Origin: Kondoa subrosea
Taxonomy: Eukaryota
Length of the DNA: 63,384 nt
Direction: 5' to 3'
Assembly: GCA_039545335.1 (NCBI GenBank)
Contig: BCIN01000003.1
Span: forward strand, 1,240,001 to 1,303,384
Shown: one piece after another, positions 1 through 28,700 of the stretch
Layout of the letters: each line of letters begins with the position of its first letter
Position numbering within the stretch: position 1 is the first letter of the stretch
Notes under the pieces: generated by a model
Seen by the model: only the letters and a program-made list of their open reading frames with translations
Databases searched by the model: none
Told to the model about the DNA's origin: nothing
Translations under genes and position numbers: made by a program

Positions 1-965
1 AGGAAGAAGAAGAAGGGAAAGAAGGTTTGACTGAGGAAGGACGTGATCCAGTGACGCTTGGACGAGCGAGACCAGTCTGAGCTTGACGTTTCGCAGGCTT
101 GACCTCGGTGGGAGGTGAATCTGTGCGATCGGAATCATACTCATCACCAGAGGGATGAATTGCTGATATCACCGCACCTTTGACAATCTGTATCTCCTCC
201 CATGGAACGAGATTGAACCCATAGTGTTTATCATCATCTTGTTGATCGATAGCTTCATCCACACCTGCAGCAAACCAAGGTATCGCATTGAGCAAATCGA
301 AAACTGAAGTGTCTTTGGTATAGTCGGGCATATCTTCCGGTGGATGGTATGGTTCATCTGCAACTTGATTAGGACTGCATTGAGCAGCAAAGACGGAAGT
401 TACCTATAGCGGTATTAGTCGCAGCACATTCGACTTCCCTTTGACTCCAATCGATGTCCTCTGCTTCCTCCGACTCCTCTACCACAGCTTCGACTTTCTG
501 AGGCGTAGGACTCAACAACTTCTTCCTCGCCCAAGGATTAGGACTAGGCGTTTTGAGTAATTCGGCATTGAGCTTCAAAGCAGGTAAAGGCGTTTGAATC
601 AATTGAGCTTTCTTGAGTGCTGTAGGTGTCTTGGGTGCATCTTTGGTCACTTGACGTGAAGCAGAAGGAGACCGTTTGACTGTGGTGTTGGTCTTATCTC
701 TGAGTAACAGACGATTCCCAGGTGCGACAGTCAATGATTTGCCTGTTCAGCGTCAATGGAGCAATCAGTAAGAGTACCGAGAGGACCAACCTTGCTTCTC
801 TTGAGCCATTACAACGCGTTGAGCATCTTTGACAGTTTGAACCAGCCTACTCGTCCCAGCTCCTTGCGATTTGCTCAGCTTCGCTCCAGGCGTAGCTTTA
901 TATGGTCCTCCCTTGATACCAGTGGCTGGATTCTCGGTATCAACGTAGATTCTTGAACGCAACAT
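1..965 (-). CDS. Securin-like / APC-C substrate-like protein (3' end runs off the window)
   Basis: Spliced frame MLRSRIYVDTEN...EKQ|GKSLTVAPGNRLLLRDKTN (D-box-like RxxLxxxxN)...EEAEDIDWSQREVECAATNTAI|DEPYHPPEDMPDY, then an S/P/R-rich tail. Two ~50-nt GT-AG introns. The CDS is clear; securin identity is inference. Confidence 0.5.
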
Positions 966-1118: not shown

Positions 1119-3038
1119 ATGTATAATCAGCCTACTCCGCTGCCCTTCCCAGGCGAGCAGCAAGCATTCTATCCTCAGCAACGTCAGCAGCAGCCCTACT
1201 ATGAGCAACAGCAACACTTCTACCAGCAATCTGGCCCTCCTCTGCCGCAGTATCAAGATTCAAGGTATCAGCAGCAATACCCTCAACCCTATGCTTCTAC
1301 AAGTTCAGCTCCTTATCCTTACTATTCTGGTCCACCTCAACAGGCGTATAATGCTCCTATGCCTCAACAGATAGCTCATCAGCAGTTCCAACCGCAGTAC
1401 CAGAATTATTCCCCTGTGTCAGCTCAGCCTCTACCTCAAAGAACAGCTTCAGGCCCACCAATACAAGGAGGTCGTCCACTACCTATGCCTCCTCCGAAAC
1501 ATAGAACATCTTTACCTGTTTTACCTCAACGTAGCGATGCACCTCCGATCGTCGATACCAATACAAGACCACCAGCTTCTTATGGTGCTGCTGTAGCTTC
1601 ATTATCAAGAGAACAATCGAATGCGTCTTCTTCTTCTGCTACTACTTTACCTTCTTCTCCTGTTTCGTCTGCACCTGTTCTACCCAATCGAAGTGAAACG
1701 CAGCAAGGATCAGTTAGGAGAAAAGGCTGGGCAAGTTGGGATAAAGGCGTCTCTGCAAGCTCAAGCGTTGATACTGTGGTTGAAGAGCTGGCTGGAGTTA
1801 GACTGGACGAAAGCGCTTCGAAACCTGCTTCATATCAAGCTTCGAATTCTTCCAACAGGACGAATGCAACATCATCGACTATTGCTGAAGAAGCTACAAT
1901 AAGTCCATCAGCAGAAGTGCCGACTTTCACAATATCGCAAGAGGAAGAACCAGCCAAGGTTCCAGCTACTCAACCAGTCCCATCGTTTTCGTTCTCGGTC
2001 GATGAAGATTCTTCTCCTTCCAAAGCTCAAAGTTCTTCCCCTGCAGTACCTACTTTCTCGTTCTCGACAGATGCCGACTCGTCTTCCTCAGAAGCCGGTC
2101 CATCCATCTCTTTCTCTGTTGCTCCTCCAACACCAAAAGCTGAATCTATTTCGTCCACATCTGATTATTTCCCTAAAATCATTGCTGCTTCTCAACCTTC
2201 CACCTCTTCACAACCTTCCACGCAAATTAGTGGAACAACTACTACTACTTCATTAGCTCATGAAATGCTTTGTGGTGGTTGTGAACTACCTATAGCTGGT
2301 AAAGTAGTTGGCGCAATGAAGAGAAGATGGCACCCTGATTGTTTTCAATGCGTTGAATGCTCGACTTCGTTGGAACATGTTGCATTTTATGAATACGATG
2401 GAAGACCATATTGTCATTTCGATTATCATGAGGTTAGTCAATTAATCTTTTGAGTAGAAGATCGTGAAACTGATGTTAAAGAATGTGTGGATAGAAATAT
2501 TCAATCAGATGCTATCATTGCAAAACTCCTATAGTTGACGAAACCTATATTACGCTTTCGGATCCAACATTAGGTGATCGAACGTATCACGAACTTCATT
2601 TCTTTTGTTCCCACTGTGGTGATCCATTCATCGATCCCAAGAGTTTAGGTACTGGTTCAAAAGAAGGGGAAACGCAAGCGAAACCGTTTGTCGTTCATGA
2701 AGGTTATCCTTACTGCGAAACTTGCAACATGAAGATGAATAAACCGAAATGTTTCAGTTGCAAGACTCCGATTGTTGAAGACGTATTGAGGGCGATGGGA
2801 AAAATCTGGCACGAAGAATGTTTCATTTGCAGTGTGAGTACTCTTGTTGCAGTAGCGTTGGATCATGGTGATAACAGCCGAATTTGTAGAGATGCGAGAA
2901 GCCTTTCGAAGATTCTCAATTCTTTGTTCGAGATGATGAACCACTGTAAGTGTTTGCTTTTGTATCGTATGGCTACTGCTGATAACAGAATATAGTTGCG
3001 AGGGTTGTTATAGAATCATGTTAAGATCCGACTTGTAA
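1119..3038 (+). CDS. Paxillin-like LIM-domain protein
   Basis: Q/P/S-rich N-terminus, then tandem LIM zinc fingers (CGGC...WHPDCFQCVEC...YCHFDY; CYHC...HELHFFCSHC...YCETC; CFSC...WHEECFIC). Three introns, TAA at 3036-3038. Confidence 0.88.
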
Positions 3039-3199
3039 TGCAATTGTCAATTGAACGCAAAGCAATTACAATTATCTCTTGTTGCGAACATCTCAACCGA
3101 GTAATGACGGAAGACTCAATAAGACTGAAAAGGCTTGAATGATACCTCTGAAGATGCTACTCTGTTTCTAAGCTGCTCTACAATGCTATGTTCCGCTGC

Positions 3200-3480
3200 A
3201 AAAAAAAGCTAAAGTAGGCCAGAGCTTGCCGAAGCAAGTCAAAGCTTGAGAGAACTATTGGGTATTAAAAACCTGTTGTTCACTTGTGCCAGGTTACCAG
3301 AAAGCAAACGGCCAACACAAGGATTCCAGGAAGAGAAGAACTTTTAAAGACCGGTCTCAACCAGTCTCTCGAAGTCTTCTCTTTATCTATTGGGTATGAT
3401 GCAGACACTTGAAACCTCGCCAGAGGGTTACCAGAAAGCAAGCGGCCAAGGCGAGGTCAAGGAAAGCTAGGGTAACACAT
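3200..3480 (-). ncRNA. Putative structured non-coding RNA with duplicated hairpin module (unassigned)
   Basis: Two copies of TTGGCCGYTTGCTTTCTGGTAACC, each closed by a different stem and followed by ATACCCAATAG. Long hairpin between the copies, CTTGC-TTCG-GCAAG hairpin, then T8. No ORF. Confidence 0.45.
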
Positions 3481-4625
3481 GAAGGTATCGAATGACTTTG
3501 GTATGAAATGAAGGGAATTTAGATGAGGGGTATCGAATGGAAGGAATAGAGATGAGCGAATGAGGAAAAAGAAGAGAAGGAGAAAATCAGCCGGTTTTAT
3601 GAGGATTTGGGTGGCTTGCGGTTGTGGTTCAAATGATTTTTAATTCCGTCCGTACCTTGAATAAGACTTATGCCAGCCCATGTACTGATATCGCGCTATA
3701 TACTGTACATTACGTAGTATAGACAGATCCAGAGCACAGCAAGGGCTGTAGACAAGTGATAAGTCATGTACAGCATGCTGTCAAAAACCAATCTTTAAAA
3801 TGCCCATGGCATGTTGAGAATGTTCTTGGAAGATTGTGTAATATTGTACTACAAACTTCTGCGCGAATTGTATTTGAAGGTCCAGAGATAGCAAAGAAAA
3901 CGCCAAATGGTCGCGTTCTGGGAAAAGCCAGATGTGATTTTTTGACGTTGCGCGTGCCTTGACAAGTAAGTCTATGACAGTGCAACTACCTCGAAGCAAA
4001 TGTCCAGGAAAGCGGAGTTGAGTCAGCGGTATGCGAATGAGACTAGACAAGAGTAGAGCCGTCTTCAGAATTTTAGGCTTGGAAATGCTTTCATATCACA
4101 GATTGGCAGTGTATCAAGAGAACTAATTCATACATTGGATGCAGTGTTACAGCTTCTTTGCGTTACAGACAAAAGAATAGACCGTGGAAGCCAAACCCAT
4201 TGCTAGAGTCAAAGCTTTGAGGATTGCTGACACGGCTCGGAAGTGTATTTGAAACTGAGTATGACGATACGCAGCTGGTCCGGATGCGGACAGGCTGTAT
4301 TTCTGGGCAATTTCTTTATTCAAGTTGAATTCGATTATGGGAGCCATGCAGGAGAATAATGCGTTGCACTAGGCTATAAGATGAAAAGGCATGCTCCAGA
4401 TTAAACCTCGGGTATAGACAAGCCTGGTATTAGTAGTCGAGTCGTTGCGACACGACGAGGGGCCGGGCAATTTAATTGGCCAGGCAGCCTGCATAGTGTC
4501 GGGCGAAACTAGCGGTGTTTGCAGTGAGAGCTAATGATCGCATGCTCACATTATCTTACACTACTTCCCATCACAAACTTGACACCTCACAAATCGGTAC
4601 AGCCTAGCCACGAACTCAAGACACT

Positions 4626-6405
4626 TCAGGCTTCCGGGGACTCTTCTTCTTTCGCATGCTGTAAGACTTCGACTATAGGCTTCAGCCTCTTGAGCGCAAG
4701 TCGAGCATCTGCTTCCACTTCAATAATGCACATCACCGCAAATTGATCAACTCACAATCTTGCCTTAACGCGAAGGTGAATCTGAAAAAACCTGGTATTT
4801 GACAATGATCTATAATGCACGTAAGTATGTATTAGACACAATGGAGAGTTACTCACACTGCTGACCAGGGGCGACGAATAATTTCGCCTCATTCAACATT
4901 CGGTTGAACAGTTCCTTCTCTGCAGCGAAGCCCTCTAGCTCTTTCCCTTCCGCATCATGTTTCGGTAGAAAGGGTCTTAGATCCACCCAGATAAAGAGAC
5001 CAGCTGTGGCAGGTTGATACTGTATATTGTATTTCTTGAAATAGGTAGTAAAGAGATCGTATGATTGCGAAAGACGGTGCTTGTTCTCTTCCACATAATA
5101 TGTAAGCATCCTTTCATCGTTCAACAGAGAAGACCAAAGAGCGTCCTATGTCACGACTTAGTGATGCGGAAATGACGGTAAGCCAGAACAAATACCGCAG
5201 CAGCTGAAACTTTCATCAGAATGGTAGTAGATAGAACAGCTCTGATTAGCTCTGGATTGTGTTGCGAAACGAAGACGCCAATTCTCAGACCATTCGCTCC
5301 AAAATCTTTGGACATGCCATAAAGACAATGAACTCGTGCTGGATCGCATCCCGTTTCTTTCTTGACATCGATAGATAGTATAGAAGTGAAGGGCAGAGGA
5401 TTTGGTACATCTGAGCTTGACATTCAGATTATGTCTCGAACTCAAAGATCATAACTCACCTTTGCTAGGAAAGACGGAAAGAGCATATATTTCGTCCGAG
5501 AGAAGGTGTAAGTCATATTCTTCTGCCAATTTACAATACGCCAAAAGACTTTCGCGAGGATAGACGAAACCTGACCACTTTGTCAGCTAGTTTTTGCAAG
5601 CAGTAAGCTTCATGCTGACCTAAAGGATTCTGGGGTGAAGAAAGTATGATACACTTAGGCTGCGGCCCGTCTGGCTTCTTTCGCAGCTCTTTGATTTTGT
5701 CCTCGTATGCTTTGACAGCATCCGTTCCAGCTGGATCGACATTATCCATCTCAACAGCTACAGCTACGATACCGTTGCGCAGAGATAAGTCGTTATCGAA
5801 GCCATTATAGTACGGAGCAGCAATCAGAACCCTGTATATACGTGAGTATTAAATCATTATCGGTCAACAGAACACGTACGCATCTCCTGGATCACATATC
5901 CTGTCGGACACATGATCTATTACTGTACTGAGACCGGTTCCCGTGACGATATGCTCTGGCAGTACTGGTGTAATAGGCTTGAAATACTTGTCGAAGAAAT
6001 TGCCTAGAGTTTTAAGCAGCCTACTTGAGCCTCCCAGCTCATCTCCATAGGTGAGGTCTATATTCTATTGGTGAGTTTTTATCCGAAGAAGTCAACTGCA
6101 TGCTCATGCTCACCTATCGGCTGTAGATTGAGATTGGCGTTGAAGTAATCCAGAAGCTCTTGATACATCAATGTGCTCTCGCTGCAACCTGATGAGTCTA
6201 GCTAAGTGTCAGCTCTGAGATAACTCACGCTACACCACAATTAAGCACGCCATCTGTGTTCAAATCGGAATATAGGCTGCCAATAAATCAGTTTCCTGGA
6301 CAAAGCATGAGGTTCCTGTACATACTCGCTGAAGATGCGCTTGATGTTCTCCAGAGCTGGATTGTCTGCACCATACTTCTGTCCGTTCTTGGAAAGCTTC
6401 ACCAT
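4626..6405 (-). CDS. PLP-dependent aminotransferase class I/II, ACC-synthase-like (paralogue 1)
   Basis: Motifs YGDELGGSSRL, APYYNGFD, SPQNPLG, SDEIYA, YGMSKDFGANGLRIG (PLP lysine), AGLFIWVDLR. Multi-intron. TATATTTA lies just upstream of the start. Confidence 0.9.
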
Positions 6406-21635: not shown

Positions 21636-22046
21636 CGTCACGTTTGACCGCGTTGACCCCAAAAATCGCGATCGAGAGTGATAGTTTGGTGTGGGGTTGC
21701 AGGACAGCTGAGTGGTATGGGCACACGCTTTACCGGTTGTGGTATGATCCTCAAGTAGGGATTGCTATGGATTGCTTGTTGCGGAACAAGTCAGTTTACA
21801 TTTCTTATCGGGTTGAAGAGTGACCGTCAAGTCTGCTTGCCAAGCCGTACTCTGGCTGAAGCAAGAGAACAGGAGAAGCAAAGGCTACGCTAGGAGGCAG
21901 CTAAGGCAGTACAGTGTTGCAGAAATCAAGGACAAGATTTAATTAGGTGAGCGAATCCAGTACAGCTAAAGTTGGATTTGAGCGATGCTGAGGCTTTGTA
22001 CCCCAGTCTTCCCCCTTTCTCGTTCTTCCTCTTCTTCACTTCTCGT

Positions 22047-23160
22047 ATGGATTCGTTGGCTACGGAAATTTTGGTCAATGTCTTCGGCCATCTGATAGAC
22101 GCCGACCAACATGACATCTACAGGCTTCTCTTAGTATGCAAGCGCTTTCACGATATATGCAAGGAAGATTTGTTATATTGCGAAATCCGATTGAGGAAGC
22201 CCAAGATGGCCTTTCTGCTGCTGCGTCGCTTCGTAGATGATCCGAGACGTGCGAAGTGGGTTCGCTACCTTGATTGCGATCCGCCATCTTGGAAAGCAAG
22301 ACCAGAAGCTATTGGCGTCACCATCGCCATCGCGCAAATACTCGCCGTCACCAGTAATCTTACCGAATTGGTAGATGTCCCACACATGACTTATGGTAGC
22401 AGCGAAGTAGTCGAGGATATCTGTCGGATGAAGAACTTGGGGAGCTTGACACTCCATGAACATATGGATCAAGATCAACCTGGCCTCACAAAATGGCCTG
22501 GCAATTCAATACGTCAGCTGATACAGACGCTTCCCCTGGCCTATCTACATTTTGGTGGCTTCAGTGATATCTCTGAACTTAGCAGTCTGGTCAAGGCATC
22601 CTGTTCGGCGCCAAAGAAAGGCCTTGTCCTGTCGCAGTCGAAGCTTAGTGCCACAGGTTTTCGATCCCTACTAGAAGCACTCACAACTGCTTTAACAAAC
22701 CTGTGTCTCTACACCACACGTATTCCAGCCGAGCACTTCGTAGAACTTATCATAGCCAATTGCAAGCAGTTGCGTGTACTATGGCTTAAGGACTGTTTCA
22801 CGACCGCGACACACGGATTCACGCCAATCAACTGGCTAGCATCACTACCGGAACTAAAAAAAATGTCGGATTGGTGGATCTCTGGTTGCAAAAGATGCTC
22901 TACTATATTTAGGCGAAAGGTGCAAGGTGTTAGAGTTGGAATCAACGCCTCTTATCGATGCGGGCTGGATGCTGGCCAGTCTTTCAAACTTAAAGGCAGC
23001 ATCATGCAAAGTATTGCTGGATAAGTGCGAATATTCGCAGAGCGAACAAGCTCTTTTCATTGTATGTTTTCGATTGCTCATGACTGTGACTCTTTGCTGA
23101 AAATCATGCTAGGCTGCAGCTGAGCGTCATGGCGTCAAACTTACTATCACTGCAAAGTAG
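22047..23160 (+). pseudogene. F-box-like/LRR protein with +1 frameshift at an A8 run (pseudogene or sequencing error)
   Basis: MDSLATEILVNVFGHLID...LLVCKRF. Similarity to the paralogues continues in another frame after A8 at 22856-22863. Confidence 0.65.
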
Positions 23161-23216
23161 AATATCGGAATTGTATGGAGAAGTATTGCAGAAGAAGTAC
23201 ATTTCCCCACGCTGCA

Positions 23217-25565
23217 TTACTCTATCTTCTCCTGCAACCACTTCAGTAAACCAGCAGTTCCTCCGCTCTCCCAAACTCTTCTGGCTGGAACTCGAAACAA
23301 ATTTCCTATTCACACTTATTAGCTTGGCCTTGAATGTCATTAAGCTTGGCTCACCCTCTACCAGGAAGCTATCGAGGCGCAACCAACCCAACTCAGGCTG
23401 CAATTTAGCAATTTCATTATCCCTCAAATCAATTTCTTGACATTGCCAATTGCTGCTGGAACCTCTTTTTGCTGTTCTCGCTACTTCGACCAAAGGCAAA
23501 AGATCCGCAAATCGATTACCGGACAATTTGAGCGTTAGCAAACCACCTCCTTCCCGCAAGAGAAGCTCTTGAATGCCTTGAAGGTTATCGAGCATGTTAT
23601 AAGTCAGATCTAGGGATTTCAAATTCGGTGCTATGCTGGCGAGATCGGTGAAGATAGTGGGTAAAGCGAGTCTGTTAGCTGAGAGATCGAGATATTGAAG
23701 ATGGAGAAATGGATTTGTACCATCTAAAGAAGTGATTCGATTGCGGGAAAGATTGAGAACATGTAGCTCGGAGAAGATCTTGCCCAATGAAGCTATTTGT
23801 TGAAAAGGAGCGGCAATCAAAGCATTCTTAGCCAAATCAATCTTCTTCACTTCTCCTTCCGTATTTGATCCGCTTGGGAAATTTTCTATCCCTCTTCCGC
23901 TTAGATCTAGCACACCATTGCTGACTTCATTTATATATGGAAATTCTCCGTCTGCTTCGCTGCCTCTTAGTTCCAGCTTTGCCAATTCTTCAGGTAAATC
24001 ATCACCTCCATCAGCAGTTTTCCAACTCTCATTACTGCCCAAACTCTTCGCTGCGCTGACTTTACGTTGCGCAACTGTAGGAGTAGGTAATCCTAAAGAA
24101 GCTACACCACTTCTCATAGCTCTTCTTCTGGCTGGCTCAAGAGCTAAAGGGTTTCCACCGATCCTGGTTTCGAGTTTCGCTGAAGAAGAAGGTTTGATCA
24201 TCTTGTTGAACGCTGGAGGTATTTGTAAATAGTTGATGGATTTGAAATTTTGTTCAAGAGAATCTAGCGAGTCTAGAGCGTTGTTGCTTAAATCTAAGGA
24301 TTTGAGTTTCGGTAAAGAGGAAGAAGGAAAAGATGTCAATTCGTTCGAGGCTAGTGAAAGTGATTCAAGTTCTTCTAGCTGTAGAGAAGGAGAAGGTGAT
24401 GTAAGGTTGTTAGAGGAAAGATCTAGTTGTGTAAGGGAGCTTGGCAATTCTACCAGTGCGGTAGAAGGAAGTCGATTTTGAGAAAGATTGAGTATTCTTA
24501 AGTACGGGAATGGAGCTGTATTCAAAGAATTGACGCCACTACTGCGCTGCTTCACTGGACTAGAAGGGAAGGAGGACCAGAAATCTTCACCTGCTGAACT
24601 GTTGCTATTGAATGATGCATCGGGATCTGGGGGCTTCTCCGCGAGTAAAGACTTGAGTTCAATCTTCCACTCTTTTGGCCAAAGCGAGGTCAGCTTGTTG
24701 TTTGACATATCCAAATTAATAAGATGTTCAAGGTTCAGCAGTTGAAGCGGTATTGCGCCTTCGAATTGATTGGAAGAAAGATTGAGTACGGTAAGAGAGA
24801 GAAGATTTGAGATAGACAGGGGAATAATAGGGAGACAGTTGCAATGTAAGTCCAGATTTTCTAATTCAGTCAGACCAGCGATCTCTTCTTCCAAAGAGTC
24901 CAATTCGTTGTTTGAGATTTTCAGTACTGTGAGTGGTAGTTGCTCGTACCAGCGGACATTGTTTGAGTCGTCTTCATCCGAGCGAGAAATGGAAAGGTCT
25001 AGCGCCTTGTCTTGCTTGAAGAAAGAAGGAGGTGCTCTGTTCGATGGATGAAAGGGATTCACAGGAGCTGACGCACAGTCTGAGAATAATATCATAGCGA
25101 AAGAACAGAGAGACTTACATATAAACGATGAGTATACTTCAGAAGGTACTTGTCTCAACGAGCGAGAAGCTAAGAGGAGCCGACCGGTCGCTTTGGCTTT
25201 CGCTACTGTTTGCGAGATAGAAGGTCCAAAGCCCTCATCAACATCATCGAAGCCTTGACTAGAAGAAGAAGCCAGAGGAGAAGAGGTTTGATAGACTTGA
25301 GATTGCTCAGACTCTTCCGCTTCTGAGGGAGCAGGACTTGCTCTAGCACTTCGAGTAGCGCCTTGCTTTGCTTTCAGAGCCAATATCGCTTGTCTGACTG
25401 TAGCATAGACATAAGCATTACGCGACAAAGCGAATTTCACAATTGCGGACCTTCCGACGAAGCTCTGGTAGCAGGAGCTGGTCTACTCTTTGTGGACGTG
25501 GGCGTGCTACTATTCGACCTTTCTGCAGGCTTTACAGGCACAAATTTGCGTCGAGGAGTCGCCAT
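23217..25565 (-). CDS. Leucine-rich repeat protein (LRRC40-like architecture)
   Basis: Many LxxLxLxxNxL repeats and C-terminal GNLFRVPARRVWE.GGT.GLLKWL. First exon MATPRRKF... is spliced to VRQAIL. Confidence 0.85.
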
Positions 25566-25713
25566 GCTCGCTTCAAGTCACTCTGTTTTGATTTTCGTCT
25601 CGAGACCTCCATTCGGTCTGCGGCTTCCAGCTAGGCTTTCTTTCCGAGCAGACAAATACCACAGATTGATCGCATATACCACTGGGTCGTGTTACCCTGC
25701 CCTTGATATCGCA

Positions 25714-28700
25714 ATGTCTGACGATGAATTTGGCTTCGACGATGATTTAGATCTTTCTGCTGTAGCTCAACTGGAATCAGCCTTGACTAATGGCACAGCT
25801 AAACCGCATCAATCTTTCGGCTCTACCTCCAAGCTCCCTGCAAGATCAAACACAGCTCCAGCGGGTCTGGTACAAAAGACTCTCTTTGGCGGAAATGCTC
25901 CTGTTGCTGGTCCTTCGCGCTCAAAGTCTTCCAATACTACATCTTCTGCTAATGCGGCGAATCCTGTACCGAAAGTTAAAGTGGTCAAGAAATGGGATAG
26001 ATCACTTTGGGTGAAAGCGCAAGGTTGGGGAACGACGAAAGCTCAGCAAGCAAAAGATGCTCGTAAGAAAGGCAAAGCAAAGCAAATCTATAGCGATGAT
26101 GAAATGGACGAGGACATGGAAGAAGATGCTGAAGCCGATGAAGCTGAACAACAGAAATTCATTGGCAATGATCCTGATTTGAGTCCTTCTGCTCCTGCAC
26201 CACCTATGCAACTCAAGATTGATAAAGAAGCAGCAAAAAAATGGATTTATCCTCTCAATCGAGAAAGACGTGATTATCAATTCAATATCGCCAGAAGAGC
26301 TCTTTTCGACAATGTTCTATGCTCTTTACCTACTGGAATGGGGAAAACACTTATCGCTGCAGTAGTCATGCTTAACTTCTATCGCTTCTTCCCGGAAGGC
26401 AAAGTCATCTTCGTTGCACCTTCAAAACCTCTTGTCGCTCAGCAGATTGAAGCTTGCCATACCATTGCTGGTATTCCGCCTTGTGATGTAGTCGAAATGA
26501 CTGGAAACGATTCACCTTCGCATAGAGCGGATGCATGGGCAACCAAACGGGTCTTCTACTGTACGCCTCAAACCGTTGCCAACGATTTGAAATTAGGAAG
26601 ATTGGATCCGAGCAAGGTCGTTTGTCTCGTAGTCGATGAGGCTCACAAAGCTTCTGGAAATTATGGTCAGTTGTTGCGCTCTTAACTGGATTCTTCTCAT
26701 AATGAGATAGCCTATTGCACAATTGTCCGATATCTCATGCAGAAGAATCCACATTTTCGGGTGCTGGCGCTTACTGCTACACCTGGAGCCACTGTCGACG
26801 CAGTTCAAAGCGTCATCGATTCCCTTCACGTGAGTCTGCCCTGTTTATGGGTCGATAAGTACTCATCAGTAACCGCAGATTGGTCACATTGAAGTCAGAA
26901 CACCGGACTCTATGGACATTCAACGATATCAGTATCAAACACAACTGAATAAGATCGTAGTCAAGCTCACACCCGACTTCGCTCATCTACGAGACAAGGT
27001 AGTCGCACTCATGAAACCACTGATCAGTCAAATGTCATCCATCGCCAATGGTAGAATTAGAAAAGACCAAGATCCACTGTCTCTTGCTCCTTTCACTGTT
27101 CAAAGCGTCAACCAAGATCCTCAAACTCGAGCTCACAAATGGTCTTACCCAGTTGGCAGCAAGTTGCACAAATACACCCTAGCTATCCAATATCTACTCT
27201 GTCATTCTCTGTCTACTTTCCTCGACGAATTACGCAAGATGGTAGATGAAGGCAAAAAGAAAGACCCAGAACTAACAGCTTTGATTCGCGAAGCAGCGAA
27301 CTTGAAGAATTCGCCTGGTATATCTGGACATCCGAAGATGGATACATTGAAGAGTCTGCTTCAAGAACATTTCACCGAATCAAGCAAAGCGGGGTTGGAA
27401 ACTAAAGCGATTGTCTTTATCAATTTCCGTCAAGTCGTTGAAGAGGTCACTGATTTTTTAAGTACCGTCAAAGGAATCAAAGCGACCAAATTTATTGGTC
27501 AAGGATCGGACAACAAGGGCGCCAAAGGTTTTTCGCAAAAAGAGCAGCAGAGTGTCAGTCTGGTGAAAACCTTTTGGCTTCTCGTGCTGACAACTAAATG
27601 ATGGTGTCTGATAGATCATGGCACAATTCAGAGATGGCAAATACAATGTCATGGTCGCAACTTCCATCGGCGAAGAAGGCCTTGATATTGGTTCGGTCGA
27701 TGCTATCTTCAATTATGATGCCCCTAAATCTTCTATTCGAGTGGTAGGTCGCTCATGCCGCTTTTGCGTCTCTTCTTATCCCGATACTACTACAGATGCA
27801 ACGTACTGGTAGAACATCCCGAGAACGATCTGGCAAAGTCTACGTTCTATCTGCTGAAGGTCGAGAAGAGCTCAATGTAGGTGACTCAATTTCCACTTCA
27901 GTTCCATGGGCTTGACAACATGCTGCTGTAGTGGGACAAAGCTCGAGACGATTACAGCCGCATCCAAACCTTTATCGTTTCTGGCAAAGAATTTGAGCTC
28001 TACGCTGATTGCGATGCTCTTGTGCCAAACAAAGCTACCATTGAGTGCGAGCAAAAGATGATCGAAACCACCCCATATGTTCGAGATTCTGTCAATATCG
28101 GTCTCATTTTCGGCAACAAGCGAAAACCATCTATCAAGAAAGCGCCTAAAGATGCAAATCGTAATATTCCGCATGATGGGCATCTAGGATTCCGAACAGC
28201 CGGAGAAGCTATGAAGAAACCTCCTACAAAGGCAGAGAAACTTGCAGATAGGAGAAGACTCGCTCTCTTATCCCCATCAATGCAAGCAGATCTTCTTCAT
28301 AATTGGGTTGATCCGGCTCGGCGAGCTCAAGAAGGTGGTGTTGGCTCGCTACCAGCTAAACCCGATATCTCTTTCCAACCTTTGTACAAGACGAAGAAGC
28401 ACAAAGTTGGCTCATCGAAGCGTACTTCGAATCTTGCCGAAGCACTCAAGGTCGGACTAGCTGTCGAAGATGAAGATGAGTATACCGGTTGGGAAGGCAA
28501 TACTTTCGCGCAATTCGATCAGAAGAAGGTGGTATGGATTGCTGCAGGCGATCGAGGTCGCAGTATCCCGCATCGCAGTTACCGATCCTGTCGAACTTCA
28601 TCTACCGAAGTCGATAATGTTCAGATCACACTTCGGAGTACTCAGCAGCCGCTTTCTCGCACTGCTTCCTTAGGCACAGCAACTCTATCATCCAACAAGT

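Follow-up and report, generated by a model that had tools for sequence, protein, structure and literature searches.

Within the window (the whole stretch of DNA that was analysed, 63,384 bases), a gene encoding a LIM-domain, paxillin-like protein is found on the plus strand and the 3' portion of a gene for a class I/II aminotransferase on the minus strand (Table 1). The introns of the LIM gene were validated against homologues, and its product reaches the extreme C-termini of two homologues. In a collection of 5.8 billion proteins, from which the genome's own protein is absent, the LIM protein has its closest relative at 48% identity. The two genes converge, and the element described here therefore sits inside a convergent gap of 1.6 kb. 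The preliminary description had presented this gene-free gap of about 1.6 kb as unusually long. The gap itself is confirmed by the stop codons on its two sides (3036-3038 and about 4629), but the claim of an unusual length finds no support: a rough coding map, which overlooks short exons, leaves 19 stretches of at least 700 nt in the window without coding-like frames, and 10 of these are at least 1.4 kb long. The lineage is thinly sampled, the best relatives of the LIM protein and of a helicase being 48-65% identical. This helicase, of the MPH1/FANCM type (DEAD/ResIII), is encoded on the plus strand at 25363-26685, perhaps on to about 30241; its best match, a metagenome or assembly protein, is 65% identical, and Rhodotorula and Cronartium supply the named matches of long coverage. 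The window looks fungal, and these matches suggest a lineage that may lie near the Pucciniomycotina. A 778-residue leucine-rich-repeat protein (23104-25440, minus strand) adjoins a 350-residue F-box protein (21972-23024, plus strand).

Table 1. Features of the convergent gap and of its flanking genes (positions in the window).
Feature	Position	Strand	Description
LIM-domain (paxillin-like) gene	1119-3038	+	Pfam LIM; joined product of 583 residues
LIM gene, intron 1	2433-2494	+	62 nt; begins GTTAGT
LIM gene, intron 2	2834-2889	+	56 nt; begins GTGAGT
LIM gene, intron 3	2946-2995	+	50 nt; begins GTAAGT
T8 run	3200-3207	-	Possible 3' end; read from sequence
CUUGC-UUCG-GCAAG hairpin	3225-3238	-	Read from sequence
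Box 2, AUACCCAAUAG	3255-3265	-	Predicted single-stranded (mean unpaired probability 0.72); preceded by a U5 run (3266-3270)
Module 2 hairpin	3272-3330	-	Retrieved by model R1 (30.3 bits, E 1e-5); fold z -1.03
Module 2, outer helix	3327-3330 with 3272-3275	-	
Module 2, inner 5' arm	3316-3323	-	
Module 2, loop	3289-3315	-	27 nt; holds 24-mer at 3292-3315
Module 2, 3' arm	3282-3288 plus 3279	-	
Central hairpin	3331-3383	-	About 22 pairs; -27.7 kcal/mol, z -5.54, equalled in 0/200 shuffles
Box 1, AUACCCAAUAG	3387-3397	-	Predicted single-stranded (mean unpaired probability 0.79)
Module 1 hairpin	3408-3461	-	Fold -21.9 kcal/mol, z -1.95
Module 1, 5' arm	3450-3461	-	
Module 1, loop	3422-3449	-	28 nt; holds 24-mer at 3426-3449
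Module 1, 3' arm	3415-3421 and 3408-3412	-	Bulge of 2 nt
Frame MCYPSFP then stop	3456-3479	-	Sole ATG-started frame in the element; six-frame translation
Leader	3470-3594	-	C/U-rich, G-poor; predicted unstructured
29-nt tandem in leader	3500-3556	-	Two clear units, weaker third to 3471; units end in (A/T)TACC
CATAAAA	3595-3601	-	TATA-like heptamer, putative promoter box upstream of leader; read from sequence
Aminotransferase class I/II gene, 3' part	4629-5445 and beyond	-	Pfam; stop near 4629
Aminotransferase gene, introns	4810-4856, 4709-4755	-	47 nt each; both begin GTGAGT

The element is built around two blocks of sequence that recur on the minus strand. The first is a 24-mer, TTGGCCGYTTGCTTTCTGGTAACC, whose two copies differ by a single C/T change. 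When the window was searched with up to three mismatches allowed, these two copies were the only matches, where none was expected (100 shuffles); the core had been described in just this form, as two copies with one mismatch. The second block, also reported earlier, is an 11-mer, ATACCCAATAG, that follows each module without any change. Taken alone the 11-mer is weak, at least two matches with up to one mismatch being found in 11 of 100 shuffles. It stands at a near-fixed distance from the core, 28 nt in one unit and 26 nt in the other, and its two copies are therefore homologous.

Comparison of the two 134-nt units showed that conservation is confined to particular columns. Identity between the units is 23/24 in the 24-mer, 11/11 in the 11-mer and 11/17 in the upstream columns that hold the 5' arm. 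Of the 28 columns that separate the core from the box, 6 are identical, which is the random level, and identity is random everywhere outside these three blocks, also beyond the box. The 24-mer and the 11-mer together are thus identical at 34 of 35 positions, against 6 of 28 in the interior (Fisher p = 1.4e-10). Since core and box have remained nearly equally far apart in both units, the duplication must have covered the whole stretch. After this event the interior apparently diverged or was replaced, and the blocks did not. Conservation of the blocks, together with the pairing that has been kept around them, implies that something constrains both.

Each copy of the 24-mer lies in the loop of a module hairpin. 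The closing stems ACCTCGCC/GGCGAGGT and CTTGTG/CACAAG are both present. Outside them, a second helix is found in each module, formed by CUUGA/UCAAG in module 1 and by CCUG/CAGG in module 2. The stems of the two modules had been considered unrelated, which proved wrong: they are homologous and align position by position. A covariance model (R1) was built on module 1 alone, with 12 pairs, and used to search the window with filters off; module 2 was retrieved at 30.3 bits (E 1e-5), and all other matches had an E-value of 3.8 or worse. In the structural alignment of these two paralogous copies from one genome, made with the model of one copy, 23 of 24 cells pair and both sides have changed in 5 of the 12 pairs. 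The double changes are C-G to U-A in three pairs, C-G to G-C in one and A-U to U-A in one. Shuffled sequences reached the same result in 13 of 500 cases, and sliding the partners by one to three columns left 26-48% of the cells paired, with zero to two double changes. Being a fit to the structure with only two sequences, this alignment yields covariation counts that lean towards the model. In a separate control, the core was held unpaired and the flanks were shuffled 3000 times; the energy of the closing stem was equalled in none of the 3000 for module 1 and in 66 for module 2, and the fold of module 2 alone is unexceptional (z -1.03). The paired cells and double changes, set against the slid controls, support the earlier view that conserved loops are carried by changed yet complementary stems.

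No other fold in the gap is as strong as the long hairpin that had been noticed between the modules. Read on the plus strand, the same segment reaches -22.8 kcal/mol (z -3.84), and two of its pairs are G-U pairs that exist on the minus strand only. A similar preference was seen for the whole element, with a modest z of -1.89 on the minus strand (5 of 100 shuffles as good) versus +0.35 on the plus strand, for module 1 (-1.95 versus -1.05) and for module 2 (-1.03 versus +0.32). The minus strand folds better for the element as a whole and for the first three of its four pieces, and the terminal piece shows no difference. This advantage, consistent but small, is due to G-U pairs. All 12 pairs of the model are Watson-Crick and therefore cannot discriminate between the strands; on the plus strand the closing stems also fold, at -17.6 and -10.7 kcal/mol, and a DNA hairpin fits them equally well. 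When the minus strand of the gap was scanned in sliding steps, 3275-3424 alone stood out (z down to -2.8); similar values of z are reached at several further positions of the gap. Both loops contain UGGCCG, which is self-pairing in RNA, and a loop-loop duplex of -9.3 kcal/mol is predicted.

We then examined whether the gap resembles coding sequence or any known RNA family. As previously stated, MCYPSFP followed by a stop is the only ATG-started frame of the element in the six-frame translation. Coding signal is absent from the gap, where frames score at most 0.145 per codon, compared with 0.18-0.31 in real exons. A Pfam search with three frames of the gap gave no match, and a protein search with a 58-residue frame that spans both modules returned no candidate. 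The longest frame, of 104 residues (3784-4095, minus strand), gave two matches in a library-wide HMMER search, P0128, for which no matched stretch is listed, and P0129, a highly repetitive protein of 2105 residues. The latter match (E 5e-10) comes from a 29-residue stretch that weakly matches about 20 tandem repeats, and it was rejected as evidence of a gene at 3784-4095, its significance being inflated by the repeats. A peptide-repeat reading was rejected because the two cores occupy different frames, and a pheromone precursor because no CaaX followed by a stop exists in the six-frame translation.

Searches of the whole window against Rfam 15, whose families include snRNAs, snoRNAs, SRP, RNase P/MRP, riboswitches, small ribozymes and tRNA, gave no match at the gathering threshold, in line with the earlier failure to match the element to a known RNA family. 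With E-values up to 10 allowed, the region 2900-4700 produced four chance-level matches only, led by mir-235, which scored 19 bits where its gathering score is 75. ARAGORN found no tRNA. The core has what we take to be a resemblance to the D-arm of tRNA-Ser, a reading that was rejected because neither ARAGORN nor Rfam supports it. A telomerase RNA was looked for through template-like permutations of CCCTAA of 8-11 nt (about 1.5 repeats), on the assumption that the telomere repeat is TTAGGG; this candidate was rejected, as the longest such stretch, TAACCCT at 3424-3430 in the module 1 loop, has 7 nt and the gap contains no 8-mer. H/ACA snoRNAs were sought as hairpin-ANANNA-hairpin-ACA, with ACA 3 nt from the end, and C/D snoRNAs as RUGAUGA and CUGA with a terminal stem. 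By eye, no ACA follows either downstream hairpin and no UGAUGA/CUGA pair occurs on the minus strand, and there was no Rfam snoRNA match. The identity of ribozyme or aptamer proposed in the preliminary description finds no backing, since no feature points to either in particular.

The outer parts of the element were read mostly from the sequence. The CATAAAA box is present as described; its position, formerly given as about 3596-3602, was off by one base. Below it, the minus-strand minimum free energies of 100-nt segments of the leader lie between -0.3 and -4.3 kcal/mol. The leader holds CATTCGATACC twice. ATACC occurs five times in 296 nt versus 0.31 expected, the densest such cluster on one strand in the window, in a count that is post hoc and partly produced by duplications. 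A second, smaller ATACC cluster (about 283-580, minus strand, four within 296 nt) lies in or beside coding-like frames. TTCGAnnCC is found twice in the leader, which by our own estimate is the chance level for a window of this size, and no Pol III A box was recognised in the element. At the opposite end, the cUUCGg hairpin and the T8 run are both where they had been reported, and the 59-nt piece that contains them is no more stable than its shuffles (z -0.08). T8 is questionable as a Pol III terminator because T5 runs lie inside the element, at 3266-3270 in module 2 and at 3564-3568 in the leader. Two pairs of repeats near the element were considered as insertion ends, a direct one of 9 nt (3118 and 3660) and an inverted one of 12 nt (3101 and 3644); both were rejected, being at chance level by our own estimate.

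To assess the distribution of the element, we searched for homologues inside and outside the window. The 24-mer had no match in the metagenome, viral and prokaryote collections. Model R1 was run on 25 distantly related metagenome LIM loci (157,509 bases), retrieved with an alignment of LIM proteins, in which only one LIM domain matched (51-63% identity) and which are not orthologous neighbourhoods; nothing credible was found in them, and the three matches listed had E-values of 0.6 to 2.6. GCTTTCTGGTAACC is absent from all 25 of these loci. Within the 63-kb window, no other copy of the element or of parts of the gap was detected, and a search for transposon ends found no terminal repeats around the element. 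The literature searched, on fungal structured RNAs and on template switching, yielded nothing on this element.

Several explanations other than an RNA element were weighed against these data. The main rival is non-functional DNA, which could give a similar picture if a local tandem duplication occurred in a repeat-prone intergenic stretch and the arms were made or re-matched by replication template switching. Such switching copies one arm from the other, and therefore several seemingly compensatory changes can arise in one step without selection on RNA; it is reported both to create and to maintain hairpins (10.1101/2021.04.15.439925). This explanation would agree with the other small duplications in the surrounding 350 nt (the 29-nt tandem, the repeated CATTCGATACC and the ATACC cluster), with the Watson-Crick nature of 12/12 stem pairs on both strands and with the lack of homologues in the collections and the 25 LIM loci. 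We nevertheless judge it rather unlikely: the contrast between the blocks (34/35) and the interior (6/28) is left unexplained, as is the placement of G-U pairs that favours folding of the minus strand, and two hairpins, each with an inner and an outer helix, would need several independent switches. Constraint at the DNA level could also come from binding sites for DNA-binding proteins, for example through CCAAT inside ACCCAATAG for the CCAAT-binding complex, forming a promoter or a barrier between the converging genes. CCAAT is present in both boxes, the blocks recur in one orientation at fixed spacing, and TACCC is found four times in 296 nt versus 0.15 expected. This seems very unlikely to us, because it is the ends of the flanking genes, not their starts, that lie here, binding to duplex DNA needs no complementary flanks, and the bases around CCAAT appear to depart from the usual consensus.

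Two further explanations place the element in an mRNA. It may be a cis-regulatory structure in a long 3' UTR, belonging either to the minus-strand aminotransferase mRNA or to the plus-strand LIM mRNA, where it would govern stability, localisation or 3'-end formation. Both genes point inward, and the element lies 162-425 nt past the LIM stop and 1.2-1.4 kb past the aminotransferase stop. For the LIM mRNA, the plus strand folds at the level of shuffles (z +0.35), and AATAAG at 3118 and A8 at 3200 suggest that the transcript may end before the modules; for the aminotransferase mRNA, the 3' UTR would have to reach 1.4 kb, which is long for a fungus. A location in either 3' UTR is accordingly improbable. 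The blocks could otherwise belong to a minus-strand transcript that is spliced and whose exon-intron module was duplicated. In it, the end of the core, CUG|GUAACC, would be a 5' splice site and the end of the box, AAUAG|, a 3' splice site, so that exon ends and splice signals are kept and the intron interior is free to drift. The pattern of conserved blocks and random interior fits this proposal; the introns, of 45 and 43 nt, would be near the shortest local ones (47 nt), and the sequence between 3455 and about 3184 would be open in one frame once both were removed. We find this most improbable all the same. All five local introns checked (three in the LIM gene, two in the aminotransferase gene) begin with GT[AGT]AGT, and GUAACC lacks G+5 and T+6; YAG is present, but no branch site of the CTGAT/CTAAT type was seen, whereas four of the five local introns have one. 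The joined frame has no ATG, a TGA intervenes between the sole ATG and the frame, coding signal is absent (0.012 per codon), and the stems are left unexplained. A census of splice sites by frame joining was set aside because its 134 candidates were mostly spurious.

The reading that we tentatively favour, while placing it somewhat short of an even chance, is a two-copy protein-binding element that acts as RNA of the minus strand. The unit is duplicated, its parts are unevenly conserved, its stems are compensated and the minus strand folds better. On this basis, a unit made of a hairpin, a single-stranded box and a second hairpin would have been duplicated in tandem, 134 nt from start to start. 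Since then, the apical sequence of 24 nt and the box AUACCCAAUAG of 11 nt would have been kept, as would base pairing in the closing stems, and the rest would have drifted to random identity. Divergence of the stems would also keep one copy from pairing with the other. We infer that the element would be transcribed, that the minus strand would be the one used, and that the RNA would bind protein and have a biological role. The most likely mechanism would be a bivalent docking site for a sequence-specific RNA-binding protein, or for the two subunits of a dimer, each unit offering an identical apical loop plus an unpaired box. The element might be a stand-alone non-coding RNA of about 270-400 nt, extending from the C/U-rich leader to near the UUCG hairpin and T8, or alternatively the end of a longer minus-strand transcript.

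To our knowledge, the TPP riboswitch and the housekeeping RNAs aside, fungi have few known structured regulatory RNAs, and these are scarcest outside the well-studied ascomycetes. We think it distinctly unlikely that the element represents a new class of fungal structured RNA, in the form of a small stand-alone transcript of two hairpin-plus-box modules that would act as a bivalent decoy or switch, with its 24-nt apical loops (UGGCCG) and its boxes binding a dedicated protein or a ligand. If the element is transcribed, it would provide a new entry point to structured RNAs in a lineage whose relatives are 48-65% identical at the protein level. If it reflects duplication at the DNA level only, it would serve as a warning that compensated stems in two paralogues are insufficient to call an RNA.

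Known systems share parts of this organisation. The guanidine-II (mini-ykkC) riboswitches of bacteria consist of two linked hairpins with conserved 4-nt loops and free stems in a 5' UTR. The likeness lies in the linked hairpins, the conserved loops and the free stems, and the loops described here carry the self-pairing UGGCCG; unlike those riboswitches, the present element has no Rfam match and no downstream gene to regulate. Tandem protein-binding hairpins with identical loops and differing stems are also found in the two-box element of the U1A pre-mRNA 3' UTR and in clusters of iron-responsive elements. These animal systems resemble our element in presenting the same loop sequence on differing paired stems for multivalent docking of a protein. 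They have loops of 6-7 nt and known protein partners, whereas the element described here has a conserved apical part of 24 nt and an 11-nt single-stranded box. Among fungi, candidate structured non-coding RNAs have been found by comparative genomics (PMC5640933, PMC8216456). They are likewise orphan structured elements in non-coding DNA recognised via covariation, and they rest on alignments of many species, whereas the evidence for ours comes from two paralogous copies within a single genome. Hairpins produced by template switching (10.1101/2021.04.15.439925) have the same perfectly complementary arms and clustered changes on both sides; from that mechanism one would not expect loop and downstream box to be as strongly conserved as they are in the two units of this element.
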